Of a stretch of DNA of 64,000 nucleotides, positions 16,742-22,242 are shown in pieces (position 1 is the first letter of the stretch; each line of letters begins with the position of its first letter). The notes under the pieces were generated by a model. It saw only the letters and a list, made by a program, of their open reading frames with translations. It searched no databases and was not told where the DNA came from. The DNA comes from an uncultured delta proteobacterium (GTDB lineage Bacteria; Myxococcota_A; Polyangia; Haliangiales; Haliangiaceae), in NCBI GenBank assembly GCA_963848295.1, contig CAWKDB010000010.1:96001-160000 (forward strand), given 5' to 3'. The position numbers were made by a program, and so were the translations under genes.

Positions 16742-16838
16742 GGAAGCGCACGTCGATCTGGTGACGGCCTCGGTCTTCAAAGCCGGTGGTGCTCCGCGCG
16801 AGCGGCGGCACGGAGGGTTCGATTCCCTTGCGCTTCCG
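16742..16838 (+). tRNA. selC: tRNA-Sec (anticodon UCA)
   Basis: 8-bp acceptor GGAAGCGC/GCGCTTCC, anticodon loop CTTCAAA, long variable arm, 5-bp T stem with TTCGATT loop, G discriminator; CCA not encoded. Confidence 0.93.
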
Positions 16839-16903
16839 CTGTCTCGTATCAAACATGGCTCGTGCGCGCGATAGCTCTAGAACAGTGTGCAGCCGTCCGC
16901 TGA

Positions 16904-17227
16904 TCAGGTCTCGGCGAGACCCAGCACGTCGAGCAACGCGGCCGAAAGCTCCTGCCATCGCGCTGCCGAGAATGTGGCGATCCAAGGGCCGAGCGCGCTG
17001 CGATCGACGGTCTTGATCCACTCCGGCTTGAGCACGCAATCGCTGGGCAGGCCATCAGTCGCGAGGAGACGCACCTCCCAACGCAGGCCGCGAATCTGGG
17101 TCGACAGCGGGACGACCGGGATCTGCGAAAGCGACGGCAGCAGATCATCGCGACCAAGGACGAGCACGGGCCGGCGCTTGTCCGGTGCGTCGAATCGGAA
17201 CCAGCGGATATCGCCGCGTTGGATCAC
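16904..17227 (-). CDS. PemK/MazF-family toxin
   Basis: IQRGDIRWFRF..PDKRRPVLVL...VVPLSTQIRG; GTG start overlaps the upstream stop. Confidence 0.9.
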   Translation of the reverse strand: MIQRGDIRWFRFDAPDKRRPVLVLGRDDLLPSLSQIPVVPLSTQIRGLRWEVRLLATDGLPSDCVLKPEWIKTVDRSALGPWIATFSAARWQELSAALLDVLGLAET

Positions 17228-17436
17228 GGAAGCTCGGTGTCAGCGCCGTCCTCGATCGGCCCCTGAGGTCCTTGGGCAACCCACACCCTCCACAGCTCGC
17301 TCTGCTGCTCTGTCGTGAGGTGCTGCTCGTCCACCGCTTCGAGGACCACGCGTACGCGCTTCCCATCAAGCTCGGGAACGGTGCTCTCGAGCTCGATCGT
17401 CTTGCCATGCACTGTGCCGGTCTTCGTGGTTGCCAT
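17224..17436 (-). CDS. Putative antitoxin (DUF104/AF2212-like N-terminus)
   Basis: MATTKTGTVHGKTIELESTVPELDGKRVRVVLE with acidic tail; coupled upstream of the toxin. Confidence 0.75.
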   Translation of the reverse strand: MATTKTGTVHGKTIELESTVPELDGKRVRVVLEAVDEQHLTTEQQSELWRVWVAQGPQGPIEDGADTELP

Positions 17437-17528
17437 CTGCGTTCTCAATGTAGCAGCGATGCGCTGATGCGAGATCCTCGATTAGTGACACCCGCGACGT
17501 AAGCCTGCGGACACGCGATCCCAAATGA

Positions 17529-17592
17529 CTTCAAAGCCGGTGGTGCTCCGCGCGAGCGGCGGCACGGAGGGTTCGATTCCCTTGCGCTTCCG
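17529..17592 (+). repeat. Duplicated 3' 64 bp of tRNA-Sec (attR-like)
   Basis: CTTCAAAGCCGG...GGGTTCGATTCCCTTGCGCTTCCG identical to 16775-16838. Confidence 0.95.
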
Positions 17593-17662
17593 TTTTGTTC
17601 CGTGCCCGAGCGAGTGCAGGAGGCGGAGGAGAGCAACTACGGTTGTGGAATAGGCTCGCCGG

Positions 17663-19717
17663 GTGGAGACTGTCCTCAACATCACGACGGCTCCAGGCCG
17701 CGACGTTCTTCTCCGCTATCAACTGCTCCAGATGCGGCGGATTCGCGCGTTACTAGAAGCGCGAGCTGCCGAGAAGAACAATCAGGATCCAGGCCCGTTT
17801 CCGGCGGCGTTTCGTTCAGCTGGCGACGAGCTAGTGGCGCTCGAACGTGCGCACGTGATTCCGTTCGCCGAGTTGTGCAAGGTGCTCGATCTTCCCCCAT
17901 GGCTCCGGGATGCGCTCGTGCTCGCGGCGGCACCGCATCTCGACCATGGTGCTCGAGGCTCGATCGCGCGCTACTGGGGCCGCGAATCCAGAACACATGT
18001 CGATGCCGCACTCGTGATCGACCTGCTCTGCACGACGCCTGACGAGGCGATCTCCGCTGGCCCAGTCTTGCGCGAAGGGGGGCGACTGCACGCTGCCGCA
18101 CTTGTCGAATCGATCGCGCTCGCGCTGGTGCATTCGCCATCGCGGCTCGAACACGAGCTCGTTCCAACTCCTCGTCTGCTCCGCGTATTCGATGGCGAGA
18201 TCGGACTCGATCCGCGTTTCAAGTCGTTCGCGCGCTTGATCAACGCACGAATTGCGGATGCGATCGGCGTCCTGCCGGCCGAGCGCCTTGCGTGGACGGA
18301 TGCGCTCGTCGGCGCATCGCATCAGGTCAACGACCGCGATGGAGCGTGTTTGTTGCTCGCGGGGTCTCCGGGCGCAGGCAAGCTGCGCGTCGCCCAAGCG
18401 CTCGCCGCCGTGAGCGGCCGGCGATACGTCCTGAGCGTGGAGGCGTCATTCCTTCCGAGTGACGCACTTCGCCTCGGAACGTTGTTGCGCGCGCTCGCGC
18501 AGGAGGCGGAGATCCTCGGCGCGCAGCTCGTACTGCGGCGAATCGACAACTTCGTCACCGGCGGCCCCATCACCTCGGTGTTGCGCCAGTGCATGACTCT
18601 GGCAGGAGCACCGATCTGGTGTACCTCGGATGTCGATCCGATGAGAATGGATGCACCCCATCTCGGCGATCTGGCCATCGTGCGTGTCTCGATCGGACTG
18701 CCGGACATCGAGCTCCGCCGGATGGCGTGGGCCGCGGATCTCGCACGCCTTGGTGTCGCCGTCACCCAAGAGGATGTGAACACCGTCGGCAGCGAGTACC
18801 CGCTCTCGCGTGCCGGAATCGAGACAGCCGCGCGATTGGTCCGCGCACAGGCTTCGGACGTCGAACCAATCTCGACGGTTATTGGAAGGGCAGCCGAATC
18901 TCAGATGCGAGGCCAGCTAGCGCGATTTGCGAAACGCAGTCGCAGCAAGGCACGCCTCGATCACCTCGTGCTGACGGATAATACGCGCGAGCAAGTGAAC
19001 GAGCTGCTGACAGCGCTGCAACGGCGAACCTTCGTCATGGATCGTTGGGGTCTCACCGATCGTCACGCAACCGGTCGTGGGATCGTGACGCTGTTCAACG
19101 GCGCGCCGGGGACGGGCAAGACGATGTGCGCGGCCGCACTCGCGAACGAGATCGCGCAGCCCCTCTATCGCATCGACGTGAGCACCGTGGTCGATCGGTT
19201 CGTCGGCGAGACCGAGAAACAGCTCGTCAGACTGTTCGAGGAAGCGGCGGCGACACGCGCGGCGTTGCTGTTCGACGAAGCGGATTCGTTGTTCAGCAAG
19301 CGCGTCGAAGCAAAGGATTCAACCGACCGTTACTCCAATATGCAGGTCAACCTGTTGCTGAACCTCATTGAGGACTACGACGGGTTCGTCGTGCTCACGA
19401 CTAACCTCAAGGGCGCACTCGACGATGCGTTTCTTCGCCGCATCGTCTACAAGATCGTGTTCGAGATGCCAGAGCACGACGAGCTCGTCGCGCTCTGGGA
19501 ATATCATCTGCCGTCGTCGATTCCTCGCGCACAGGATGTGGATCTCGACGCGCTCGCCGAGGAGTTCCGTACGATCGCCGGCGGCGACATCAAGAACGCT
19601 GTGCTTCGCGCCGCGCTCGCCGCTGGTGGCGAACGGCCGGTCACGCTCGAGATGTTGCGGAAGTCAATGATCAACGAGCTACGTGCAAACGGTGGGGTCG
19701 TCGCCGATCGTCGGTAG
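17663..19717 (+). CDS. AAA+ ATPase, Afp15/Pvc15-like (eCIS-type) architecture
   Basis: N-terminal LVLAAAPHLD region, degenerate first P-loop GSPGAGKL, intact GAPGTGKT, LLFDEADSLFSKR, TDRYSNMQVNLLL, LTTNL..ALDDAFLRR. Confidence 0.82.
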   Translation: METVLNITTAPGRDVLLRYQLLQMRRIRALLEARAAEKNNQDPGPFPAAFRSAGDELVALERAHVIPFAELCKVLDLPPWLRDALVLAAAPHLDHGARGSIARYWGRESRTHVDAALVIDLLCTTPDEAISAGPVLREGGRLHAAALVESIALALVHSPSRLEHELVPTPRLLRVFDGEIGLDPRFKSFARLINARIADAIGVLPAERLAWTDALVGASHQVNDRDGACLLLAGSPGAGKLRVAQALAAVSGRRYVLSVEASFLPSDALRLGTLLRALAQEAEILGAQLVLRRIDNFVTGGPITSVLRQCMTLAGAPIWCTSDVDPMRMDAPHLGDLAIVRVSIGLPDIELRRMAWAADLARLGVAVTQEDVNTVGSEYPLSRAGIETAARLVRAQASDVEPISTVIGRAAESQMRGQLARFAKRSRSKARLDHLVLTDNTREQVNELLTALQRRTFVMDRWGLTDRHATGRGIVTLFNGAPGTGKTMCAAALANEIAQPLYRIDVSTVVDRFVGETEKQLVRLFEEAAATRAALLFDEADSLFSKRVEAKDSTDRYSNMQVNLLLNLIEDYDGFVVLTTNLKGALDDAFLRRIVYKIVFEMPEHDELVALWEYHLPSSIPRAQDVDLDALAEEFRTIAGGDIKNAVLRAALAAGGERPVTLEMLRKSMINELRANGGVVADRR

Positions 19718-20722
19718 TCAGTTCACCGGGACCGAGCGAATCGACCAGGTCCCCTTGGGCAGCTTCTCGGCCCAATACACAGCAGTGTTGTTAGCGGCGA
19801 TCGCGGATAACTCACCTTTCGCGGTCGTGACCATCCGGGTCTTTCCGTCGGCGGTGCGCGCCACAATCGCGCGCCCCTTCGTGTAGAACAGCTCGCGATC
19901 ATTGGCGGCGCACGCCACGCCAGGGTCATCGCTCTTGCGGGGGTCCGGTACCTGGACCGCCGGTCCGCCCTTGATCGGCGCGCTGAACAGCTCGATCAAC
20001 GCGCCCGGCTGCTGCGATGCGAGCGTCTGCCGGAACCACCACACGGTGGTCGCGGTCACAGCGATACACTGGATCGGGCCAGCGGGCGCCGAGACCGCTG
20101 CGATCTCCCCGCGGTTGCTGACCTTGAGCGTCGTACTCGCAATTTCGTATGCGACGAACGTAGCGTCACCCGCGCGCGCGACTTCCAGTTCGCCCGACGT
20201 TGCTGCAGCGGCCGTCGGATCGGGCAGCGCCACCGGCGCCAGCGCACCGGTCTTCAGATCGACGCGGATCGCGCGTGTTTCATAGCCGACCTGTCCCATG
20301 ACCTGGCCGATCACGATCACCGCGCCATCGACTGCGACGATGCCATTCGCCTGATCTATGACATGCTGCCTGACGTGTCGCGGAGCACCGTCATCCAGGT
20401 TGATCGCGTACACGTCCCCGCTCATGTTGGTGACGTAGTACGCCACGCCTGTGGCGATGGAGATCGAGCCTGCCGGGAGGACTCCGAGCAAGTGGAGGTC
20501 GCCTCCGGGCGTGACCGTGTAGATGCCGTTTGCCGGACCTGTGTCGTCGGCCGTCTCACCGCGCTGTGTCTGGACGACGAGCTTCGCACCCACCGCTTGG
20601 ATCCAGACCGGAATCTCTGGGATTTCGATGACTTGAGATCCCCGCGCCGCATGGCCCCCGCATCCATCCAACGCGAGTGGTGCTAACAGCGCAGTCGCTG
20701 CAACGAGATGGCGTCTTCCCAC
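19718..20722 (-). CDS. Hypothetical lipoprotein, beta-propeller-like
   Basis: Signal peptide with LALDGC; repeated beta-strand blades (IAVTATTVWWF, IAANNTAVYWAE). Confidence 0.72.
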   Translation of the reverse strand: MGRRHLVAATALLAPLALDGCGGHAARGSQVIEIPEIPVWIQAVGAKLVVQTQRGETADDTGPANGIYTVTPGGDLHLLGVLPAGSISIATGVAYYVTNMSGDVYAINLDDGAPRHVRQHVIDQANGIVAVDGAVIVIGQVMGQVGYETRAIRVDLKTGALAPVALPDPTAAAATSGELEVARAGDATFVAYEIASTTLKVSNRGEIAAVSAPAGPIQCIAVTATTVWWFRQTLASQQPGALIELFSAPIKGGPAVQVPDPRKSDDPGVACAANDRELFYTKGRAIVARTADGKTRMVTTAKGELSAIAANNTAVYWAEKLPKGTWSIRSVPVN

Positions 20723-20757
20723 GTTGCGATGATACTCCAGCTACAACAGACCTCTGA

Positions 20758-22242
20758 TTCGATGACCAGGGCGAGCAAGCAGCCACCGCAACGACGGGCA
20801 AGACCGCACCGGTTCGCGAGGAGCGGGTCACCGAGAAGCATGGGGAGCAGACGTGGAACCGGGACGAAGGCGTGATGGGCATCCTGCCCGCACAACCCAT
20901 CGGCATCGAATACGCGACCGGCAAGGCCGAGAGTTTCAAGCTCATGGCGGAGGAGACTGACTCCTCACGCGTGACGATGACAGGCACGCGGAGATCTGGC
21001 GAAGGGGCTGCCTTCCACAGCCAGATCCGGATGATGAACAACTACAACGAGGACGTTTGGTCGATCGAGGAGTCGCAGCGCGAGTACGACTCGATGGCTC
21101 CGCTCGGGAACTTGGCGGTGCAGTCGTTCGCCAAGCTCCAGATGGTCGGGAAAACGATCGGCGTGGACGAAGGCTTCCAGCTCGATGCCAAGGAGACCGC
21201 CGCCCTCGGACCGGCGTCCAGAACCGCCGAGAACATCGGCATGCTCCAGGACGGCGAAGGCCACTCCGTAAAATCTGCCGCCGACAAGGTCAGCGGCTTA
21301 CGCGTGGAGTTGCTCGGGGCGGGTACGAACATGGCATCCGTCGCGGACAAGGTCGTGTTGCGCAAGCTAAAAGAAGAGCTCGAGACCGAGAAGGGCAACA
21401 AGGAAAAGATCGAAAAGAAGATCGAGAAGATCGCGGGCGTCATCGGTTATCTCGACAAGGCGGGTGCACTCGTGGCCGGTGGCGCTGGGCTGGTTGCGGG
21501 GCCGGGAGCTGCAGCGACCGCTGCCGCTGAGTTGGATGAGGCGAGCGCCGTCGCCCCGGAGATGAAGAGCCTCCAGGAAGGTGGCGACAAAGTCGAGAAG
21601 GCCGGCGGACCACTCGAGGGAATCGCGAAGGTGGGGCTCGAGATGTTCTACGCCAAGGAGATGAACGCGATCCAAGGCAAGATTGCGACGATCACCGCGG
21701 AGATTCCGGGTGCCGAATACCGGCTAGAGCGCGACGCGATCAAAGCCGCGAAGGATCACTTCGACGGCGTCGCCAGGCTGTACGAGAGCGCCGTCGAGAA
21801 CTACAAACTGGCGATCAACAATCGGCGCGAGTCGATGGGGGCGATCGGCGGCAGGGCCGACAACGTCGTCGACAAGACTGGCAACGATGCGATGGATTCA
21901 CAAGCGATGGTCTACACCGCCACTGCGTACGAAACGCAATCCTTCCTCGGCACCGCGATGGAGGCCGGAGCACGTACCCAGGCGAAGGTCGATCAGGCGT
22001 CCCACGACATGCGCACCCGCCGAAACCAACACTGGGGGATGCTCAGTGACGCGATGGACGTGACGAATGAACCGCGTACTGAGGGCGAAGACGGGCCGGA
22101 CATTCAAGGCATCAAACACATGAGCCGGCTCATGATGTGGTGGATGCAGGGCGCAGGCAAGGTCGCAGGCGACGTCGATCGACAGGTCGACAAGAAGGCG
22201 AGTCACGTCATGGGCGCGGTCGGATATAGCGGCCACTACTGA
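20758..22242 (+). pseudogene. Probably 5'-truncated helical toxin/effector-like gene (first start codon at 20872)
   Basis: Frame is open from 20758 (after TGA) for 38 codons without a start codon; coiled coils flank a Gly/Ala hydrophobic segment. Confidence 0.5.

Follow-up and report, generated by a model that had tools for sequence, protein, structure and literature searches.

How does a toxin-antitoxin (TA) pair come to lie alone between two copies of the 3' part of a tRNA gene? This question is raised by a locus in the 64,000-nt stretch of DNA analysed here (the window), which belongs to an uncultured delta proteobacterium whose genome assembly (G000) amounts to 7.78 Mb in 11 contigs, is 85% complete by markers and holds the window in a contig of 4.9 Mb; its affinities appear to lie with soil-dwelling myxobacteria (family Kofleriaceae). 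An original prediction, made from the window alone, had left two origins side by side: a non-autonomous micro-element mobilised in trans, or an island that had shrunk to its addiction module. We have addressed this choice by comparing the locus with its relatives, with other tRNA-flanked units and with known systems.

Layout of the unit at selC

The unit is bounded by a direct repeat of 64 nt, whose two copies are 100% identical and lie 754 nt apart from start to start (Table 1). A blastn search with this fragment against the 7.78-Mb genome (E 7e-26) revealed no other full-length copy. The left copy is the 3' part of the tRNA-Sec gene, selC (67 bits in Rfam against a cut-off of 47), and the repeat extends from base 1 of the 7-nt anticodon loop to the base after the acceptor stem, with no CCA directly 3' of either copy; positions 16775-16781 would constitute the crossover core. 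Between the repeats lie 690 nt with a GC content of 63% (68.5% for the window), in which a codon model finds a pair of overlapping ORFs on the minus strand as the only genes. Furthermore, none of the integrase or resolvase matches of the genome (15 to PF00589, 2 to PF13356 and 1 to PF00239) falls in the window. The original description of the locus, namely identical selC repeats starting at the anticodon loop, a single enclosed TA pair and the absence of a recombinase from the window, was therefore accurate. The selA gene is located elsewhere in the same genome. A scan of the region upstream of the TA pair for consensus sigma-70 promoters and terminators returned no sites.

Table 1. Features of the unit and its target gene, in window positions
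Feature	Position	Strand	Basis
tRNA-Sec gene (selC), integration target, intact	16742..16838	+	ARAGORN, Rfam RF01852
Left repeat (attL side), selC 3' part from anticodon-loop base 1	16775..16838	+	Same start in relatives' selC fragments
Left spacer, 52 nt, without arm-repeat pair	16839..16890	.	Arm score at background
PemK/MazF-family toxin gene, 107 aa, intact	16904..17227	-	PF02452, E 2.5e-12
Predicted antitoxin ORF, 70 aa	17224..17436	-	Homologue pairing with toxin; modelled complex
Region upstream of TA, presumed promoter	17437..17486	-	Includes HTH-gene tail 17468-17485
3'-terminal six codons (LIEDLA) of the 248-aa HTH gene of the island, rest deleted	17468-17485	-	Comparison with relatives
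Deletion junction, HTH-gene tail / right-end stub	17487..17491	.	Query 17400-17592 split in G016
Core-proximal stub of selC island right end, 37 nt	17492..17528	+	94% identity with G016 over 35 nt
Right repeat (attR side), displaced selC 3' fragment	17529..17592	+	Read contigs from two studies link it to the TA pair

The DNA 3' of the right repeat (17663-22242, GC 0.62-0.65) contains genes for an AAA ATPase and for proteins of 291-334 aa and 455 aa. The first of its genes is matched in only 3 of the 90 other genomes of the genus, at no more than 72%, and no syntenic relative was found among them. This block is possibly older acquired DNA.

The closest solved chains to the toxin are PDB chains named MazF3 (E 1e-8), and in an alignment of 14 sequences R19 is invariant while S42 and T43 are nearly so; we take the Arg and Thr residues to be the conserved MazF active-site positions. 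The GTG start codon of the toxin gene overlaps the stop codon of the upstream 70-aa ORF. The family of this ORF comprises 69 proteins at E<=0.001, itself included, and in 18 of 19 metagenome loci a match to it directly precedes the toxin gene. This family yielded no match over the cut-off in Pfam, none in NCBIfam and none among PDB sequences, and its AlphaFold model (pLDDT 80.8, pTM 0.41) has no fold match at Z>=2. An Atlas lead to PF01954 (AF2212-like, AbrB-related antitoxins), with a score of 0.87 that falls under the 0.9 mark, hints at a relationship to the AF2212-like antitoxins, which are grouped with PIN toxins where PMC2701414 treats them.

The modelled complex of the 70-aa product with the toxin dimer reached an ipSAE of 0.76, against 0.03 for the best control, the mark applied being one that 116 of 157 solved pairs and 2 of 215 mismatched pairs reach. 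The runs agree in at least 78% of the contacts, the pLDDT of the partner is at least 78, and the C-terminal half of the 70-aa product covers R19, S42 and T43 of the toxin. This model supports binding of the toxin by the 70-aa product, although solved MazEF complexes exist and the pass may reflect likeness to those. In comparison with three relatives, the pair has a dN/dS of about 0.10-0.13 (dN 0.06-0.12, dS 0.52-0.86), a value that spans the whole history of the lineage and not the time since the collapse discussed below. From its sequence and the modelled complex, we read the pair as an intact type II mazEF-like system of predicted function. Like chromosomal type II TA loci of the mazEF family, it consists of two small overlapping genes, the antitoxin first, with a toxin of the PemK/MazF type; unlike them, the partner of the toxin lacks a Pfam or NCBIfam family and a fold match.

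Probable parent islands and the deletion scar

Of the other 90 genomes in the genus, 77 gave a match to selC, and a number of them carry a second selC fragment that starts at the same base as the repeat described here. Beside such second fragments lies a P4-like integrase of 430-448 aa, composed of an Arm-DNA-bind_3 and a Phage_integrase domain. When GTDB was scanned for the right end that these islands conserve, seven loci emerged, all of them with a direct-repeat pair about 100 nt out and with an adjoining integrase gene (six by gene model, one cut by the contig end). The same repeat pair is also found 47-50 nt downstream of selC in 15 of 42 distinct selC loci, the window's own being one of the 42 and the unpublished genome G010 contributing one of the 15. 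According to their position and to the Arm-DNA-bind_3 domain of the integrase, these paired direct repeats are probably the arm sites of the integrase.

The genome G073 contains a contiguous selC island of 18.5 kb on a single contig, and the gene lists of this island and of that in G008, read by eye, show an integrase, an HTH gene and cargo. The HTH gene (248 aa, with a weak MerR-like match) lies 3-4 kb inside the right end in three contiguous islands. It is followed by a 77-aa gene in G073, and in G016 by the TA pair and then a 73-aa homologue; as the TA pair lies between these two genes in G016 and is absent from G073, it appears to be optional cargo. The TA-containing cassette was matched in 8 of the 90 genomes. 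In G016, G090, G096 and the metagenome locus L078, the TA pair (80-87% DNA identity; 83-89% over the matched part) lies behind the HTH gene or its remains, and the last codons of the HTH gene overlap the region upstream of the pair. Integrase, HTH gene and complete TA pair do not occur together on any single contig; those of G016 are on two contigs that are linked only by synteny with G073.

Two of these relatives represent separate decay states of one island family. In G090 the TA pair lies 527 nt behind selC and the HTH gene is broken, with no second selC fragment found, and G096 contains in a row a right-end piece, 93 nt of the integrase gene, the HTH tail and half an antitoxin, the product of a separate collapse. 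The TA pair also travels by other routes, since G031 has a close homologue (80%) without a link to a selC island and a tRNA or tmRNA piece lies near the pair in only 3 of the 19 metagenome loci.

Other arrangements at selC were observed in the relatives. A second element type has the end of a XerC-like integrase gene directly behind selC or its fragment (L004, L011, L029, L035, L043 and L049), and a third leaves only a T-loop fragment (L078, L097 and L099). G068 carries two full-length selC copies 7 kb apart (G068:C163:3030-10123, L048), and in G074 three fragments of selC lie at spacings of about 137 nt (L054).

In the window, the last codons of the HTH gene are followed after 5 bases by the 37-nt stub, which agrees with the best of the seven GTDB right ends at 34 of 37 positions and with the other six at 23-28 of 37. 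When the segment 17400-17592 was used as query against G016, its positions 1-87 and 93-193 matched at two different places. The fusion of HTH tail and right-end stub is, on this comparison of sequences, a deletion scar, and the contiguous islands put the size of the right-hand deletion at about 3-4 kb. The junction is whole only in the window's own genome, one of 147, and was found in none of the 146 others, many of the 147 being fragmented and incomplete.

The 52 nt of the left spacer gave no blast match in the loci or in the genome and match no island left end, and in alignments with 40 selC-downstream sequences, judged against shuffled ones, the best z was 2.6 and the mean z 0.1 (the G096 row, which is out of register, was left out of the alignments of end sequences). 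A word containing TCTAGA that the spacer has in common with the left ends of tRNA-Ala units has 8 copies in the genome and was discarded as evidence.

Short tRNA-flanked units in the genome and the genus

The search for further mini-cassettes flanked by tRNA fragments that the original prediction had proposed was productive. Including the selC unit, we have found eight units of 0.75-2.0 kb flanked by tRNA or tmRNA fragments; seven carry TA-like genes only and the eighth one unrelated gene. Pfam matches over the cut-off were to MazF, to MNT with HEPN and to AbiEi with AbiEii, that to DUF6036 being under it, and one toxin resembles ParE (29%, E 1e-6). An aspartyl protease with a small partner was counted as TA-like on our own assumption.

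Three of the units stand in a row behind tRNA-Ala(CGC) (G000:C10:2841930-2845315, L031); they measure 1127, 1231 and 954 nt, lack an integrase and carry TA-like genes. A PIN domain was called by eye in the third of them, with no support from Pfam or the PDB. We compared this stack with 20 further tRNA-Ala(CGC) loci (L102-L121) picked for close spacing from at least 150, a choice that biases the set to short units (111 more loci exist). The 21 loci hold 32 units, of which 20 have TA-like genes (control, 1 of 320 random stretches), a count that is partly circular because the TA query set came in part from the same units, and 2 have integrase matches. An inverted-repeat right end is present in 27 of the 32 (control, 28 of 3000) and a left motif in 15 of the 32 (control, 62 of 3000). 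The selC unit does not have this right end. Judged by their sequences, the tRNA-Ala(CGC) units are better candidates than the selC unit for a family of cassettes mobilised in trans, and, if they are moved in this way, they would constitute a TA-cassette system.

Several other loci of the window's genome deserve description. A 1979-nt unit with AbiEi and AbiEii only lies behind a tRNA-Ala(GGC) island (G000:C10:4231910-4233888, L034) and has the same direct-repeat pair at both ends, so that it looks like an intact non-autonomous element. Behind a tRNA-His island lies a 1745-nt MNT-HEPN unit (G000:C10:3870682-3872426, L032) that has its core-proximal stub in common with that island and has lost the arm repeats, which is the pattern of the selC unit. 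At the tmRNA gene (G000:C4:288404-289490, L033), 3' fragments flank two units, one of 944 nt in which an aspartyl protease gene is accompanied by a small ORF, the other of 122 nt and gene-less; the gene pair is related to a small ORF and aspartyl protease found in tRNA-Ala(CGC) units of relatives. Two tRNA-Leu genes (G000:C10:1111688-1112711 and C10:2152583-2153225) each have regularly spaced copies of their final 17-19 nt behind them, five at intervals of 188 nt at one gene and four at intervals of 140 nt at the other. Finally, the tRNA-Ala(TGC) island (G000:C10:48958-58703) has the backbone of the selC islands, with a related integrase and a frameshifted HTH gene (about 52% identity), and other repeat motifs.

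Origin of the unit and comparison with known systems

The 754-nt TA unit is most likely the collapsed remnant of a larger selC island, held in place by its TA pair. Judging from the relatives, an island with a P4-like integrase would have entered selC at the anticodon loop and produced the 64-nt duplication. Comparison within the island family places the TA pair among its optional cargo, directly behind the HTH gene. A deletion of about 3-4 kb would then have fused the HTH tail, as preserved in the scar, to the 37-nt stub, with loss of most of the HTH gene, an excisionase-like gene, the integrase gene and the right arm repeats, and a further loss or replacement on the left may have taken other cargo and the left arm repeats, leaving the 52-nt spacer. 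Having neither arm sites nor integrase, the resulting unit would no longer be an integrase substrate and could still undergo host recombination; cells deleting it would lose the antitoxin first and then suffer MazF poisoning, so deletions would stop at the TA pair and the remnant would persist. Relatives carry large islands with the same end and the unit contains an internal deletion scar, which is the combination that the original prediction had said would leave only a remnant; of its two origins the collapsed island is supported and the micro-element is not, since both ends lack arm repeats, the genome yielded no close selC integrase and the junction does not recur in the 146 other genomes.

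P4-like tyrosine integrases need arm sites. The arm score at the two ends of the unit is -13.5 and -13.7, close to the median of random sequences (-12.2), whereas real pairs score 23.7-28.6, and no arm pair at one mismatch or fewer was found in the whole genome. The best match of the genome to the selC integrase (35-37%) belongs to a tRNA-Arg island; the search for a selC-targeting integrase that the original prediction had proposed gave no close homologue in this genome, which, being 85% complete, could hold one in its missing part. Two integrases of this type are present in the genome, one in the tRNA-Ala(TGC) and one in the tRNA-Arg island, and were rejected as helpers, by reasoning from the other repeat motifs there. 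With arm repeats absent and no close integrase found, integrase-driven excision of the unit is unlikely. Host recombination could still remove the unit through its perfect 64-nt repeats, and MazF addiction would select against such a loss. The persistence of TA systems in islands and their remnants is discussed in PMC2654758, which also reports that some chromosomal TA systems fail to prevent deletions.

In five relatives with larger islands, the tRNA gene and its fragment differ at 0, 0, 1, 2 and 11 of 64 sites, and the selC gene of G112 is identical to that of the window (97/97) with different flanks. Perfect repeat identity is thus a weak clock, and says little about the recent event that it had been taken to suggest. 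No empty site was found among the relatives, and the contigs of four runs showed neither a circle nor an excision joint, which, at their low depth, is weak evidence.

Among the other explanations, an assembly artefact, in which the 64-nt repeat would have caused a collapsed or chimeric join, is extremely unlikely. In its favour, not one of 18 read-contig pieces crosses the left junction (16838/16839), and a contig of run X2, nearly identical at selC with 2 differences in 141 nt, runs on into other DNA. However, the window sits in a 4.9-Mb contig, the junction of the TA pair with the right repeat is the same, with 0 differences, in read contigs of two studies (X1, perhaps the source sample of the assembly, 17445-17796; X3, 17377-17612), and one X2 contig joins the toxin gene to the final 16 nt of the left spacer. 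The selC contig of X2, together with the intact selC of the window, also speaks against the proposal that the unit guards the attachment site.

That the unit is a non-autonomous mini-element, a 754-nt circle moved in trans by the selC integrase of a visiting island, seems distinctly unlikely. Its two perfect repeats and retained core-proximal stub of 37 nt would suit such an element, selC integrases exist in the genus, and there are precedents in the integrase-less tRNA-Ala(CGC) units with conserved ends and in the AbiEi/AbiEii unit with its repeat pair at both ends. But both ends of the selC unit lack arm repeats and it has no right-end motif of the Ala type, its junction occurs in one of 147 genomes only, and a helper was not found in the genome; moreover, the right-end pattern in GTDB comprises only full-type ends (the seven loci), with no matches in viral contigs, and the four runs (low-depth contigs, and weak on this point) gave neither joint nor circle. 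A very unlikely variant has the deletion taking place in a circle or in another host, from which a small circle entered selC once by homologous recombination through the 64 nt; it would account for a perfect duplication without arms and for the dissimilarity of the left spacer to all island left ends, yet the same island decays stepwise in place in G090 and G096, and neither a second copy nor a circle was seen. A broader and unlikely possibility is that these myxobacteria have a cassette system resembling integrons, anchored at tRNA genes and lacking a resident integrase. Islands would collapse onto their TA pairs, and the resulting units of less than 2 kb would retain enough of their att ends for visiting integrases to excise and restack them; the selC unit would be one of these, and the tRNA-Ala(CGC) units, with their conserved inverted-repeat ends, would be the mature form, by which TA pairs and other cargo are distributed through the genus.

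As the collapsed remnant of an island, the selC unit can be set beside several known systems. The literature covered, in which subscription journals were thinly represented, yielded no account of TA-only units of less than one kilobase at tRNA genes. The Islander survey (PMC4383910) deals with tyrosine-integrase islands in tRNA genes that have an anticodon-centred attP, their own integrase and a size of 2-200 kb. The parent islands in the relatives fit this class, and the selC unit agrees with it in having a tRNA gene and a displaced 3' fragment in the same orientation, with a crossover at the anticodon loop, and departs from it in its 754 nt and its lack of an integrase. Being smaller than 2 kb and without integrase, it would be rejected by both filters as that source states them, so that the survey misses units of this kind and small integrase-less units may be undercounted. 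From a non-autonomous element mobilised in trans, the selC unit differs in having no arm repeats and in its whole junction being present in one of 147 genomes.

The CIMEs (cis-mobilizable elements) of streptococci, as PMC5704250 and PMC7563491 present them, are decayed, integrase-less derivatives of integrative elements, formed by deletion and flanked by att repeats at 3'-end targets such as tRNA genes, very common and stacked in tandem; according to the latter source, microCIMEs measure 130-220 bp and have no genes, and classical CIMEs measure 1.2-13 kb. Like them, the selC unit lacks integrase and transfer genes (it has two ORFs only) and derives by deletion from a parent, pieces of which are found in G016, G073, G090 and G096. 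Unlike them, its 754 nt fall between the microCIMEs and the classical CIMEs and its cargo is a TA pair only. In the gene lists of the G073 and G008 islands, read by eye, no relaxase or conjugation gene was recognised. It keeps the core repeats and the 37-nt stub and has no arm repeats at either end, so its att sites are probably not functional. As a remnant, the selC unit would provide a mappable case of an island shrinking down to an addiction module, relatives showing the parent and two other stages of decay, and would bear on the question of why chromosomes accumulate TA pairs. By analogy, we suggest that it behaves like a CIME reduced to a presumed addiction module.
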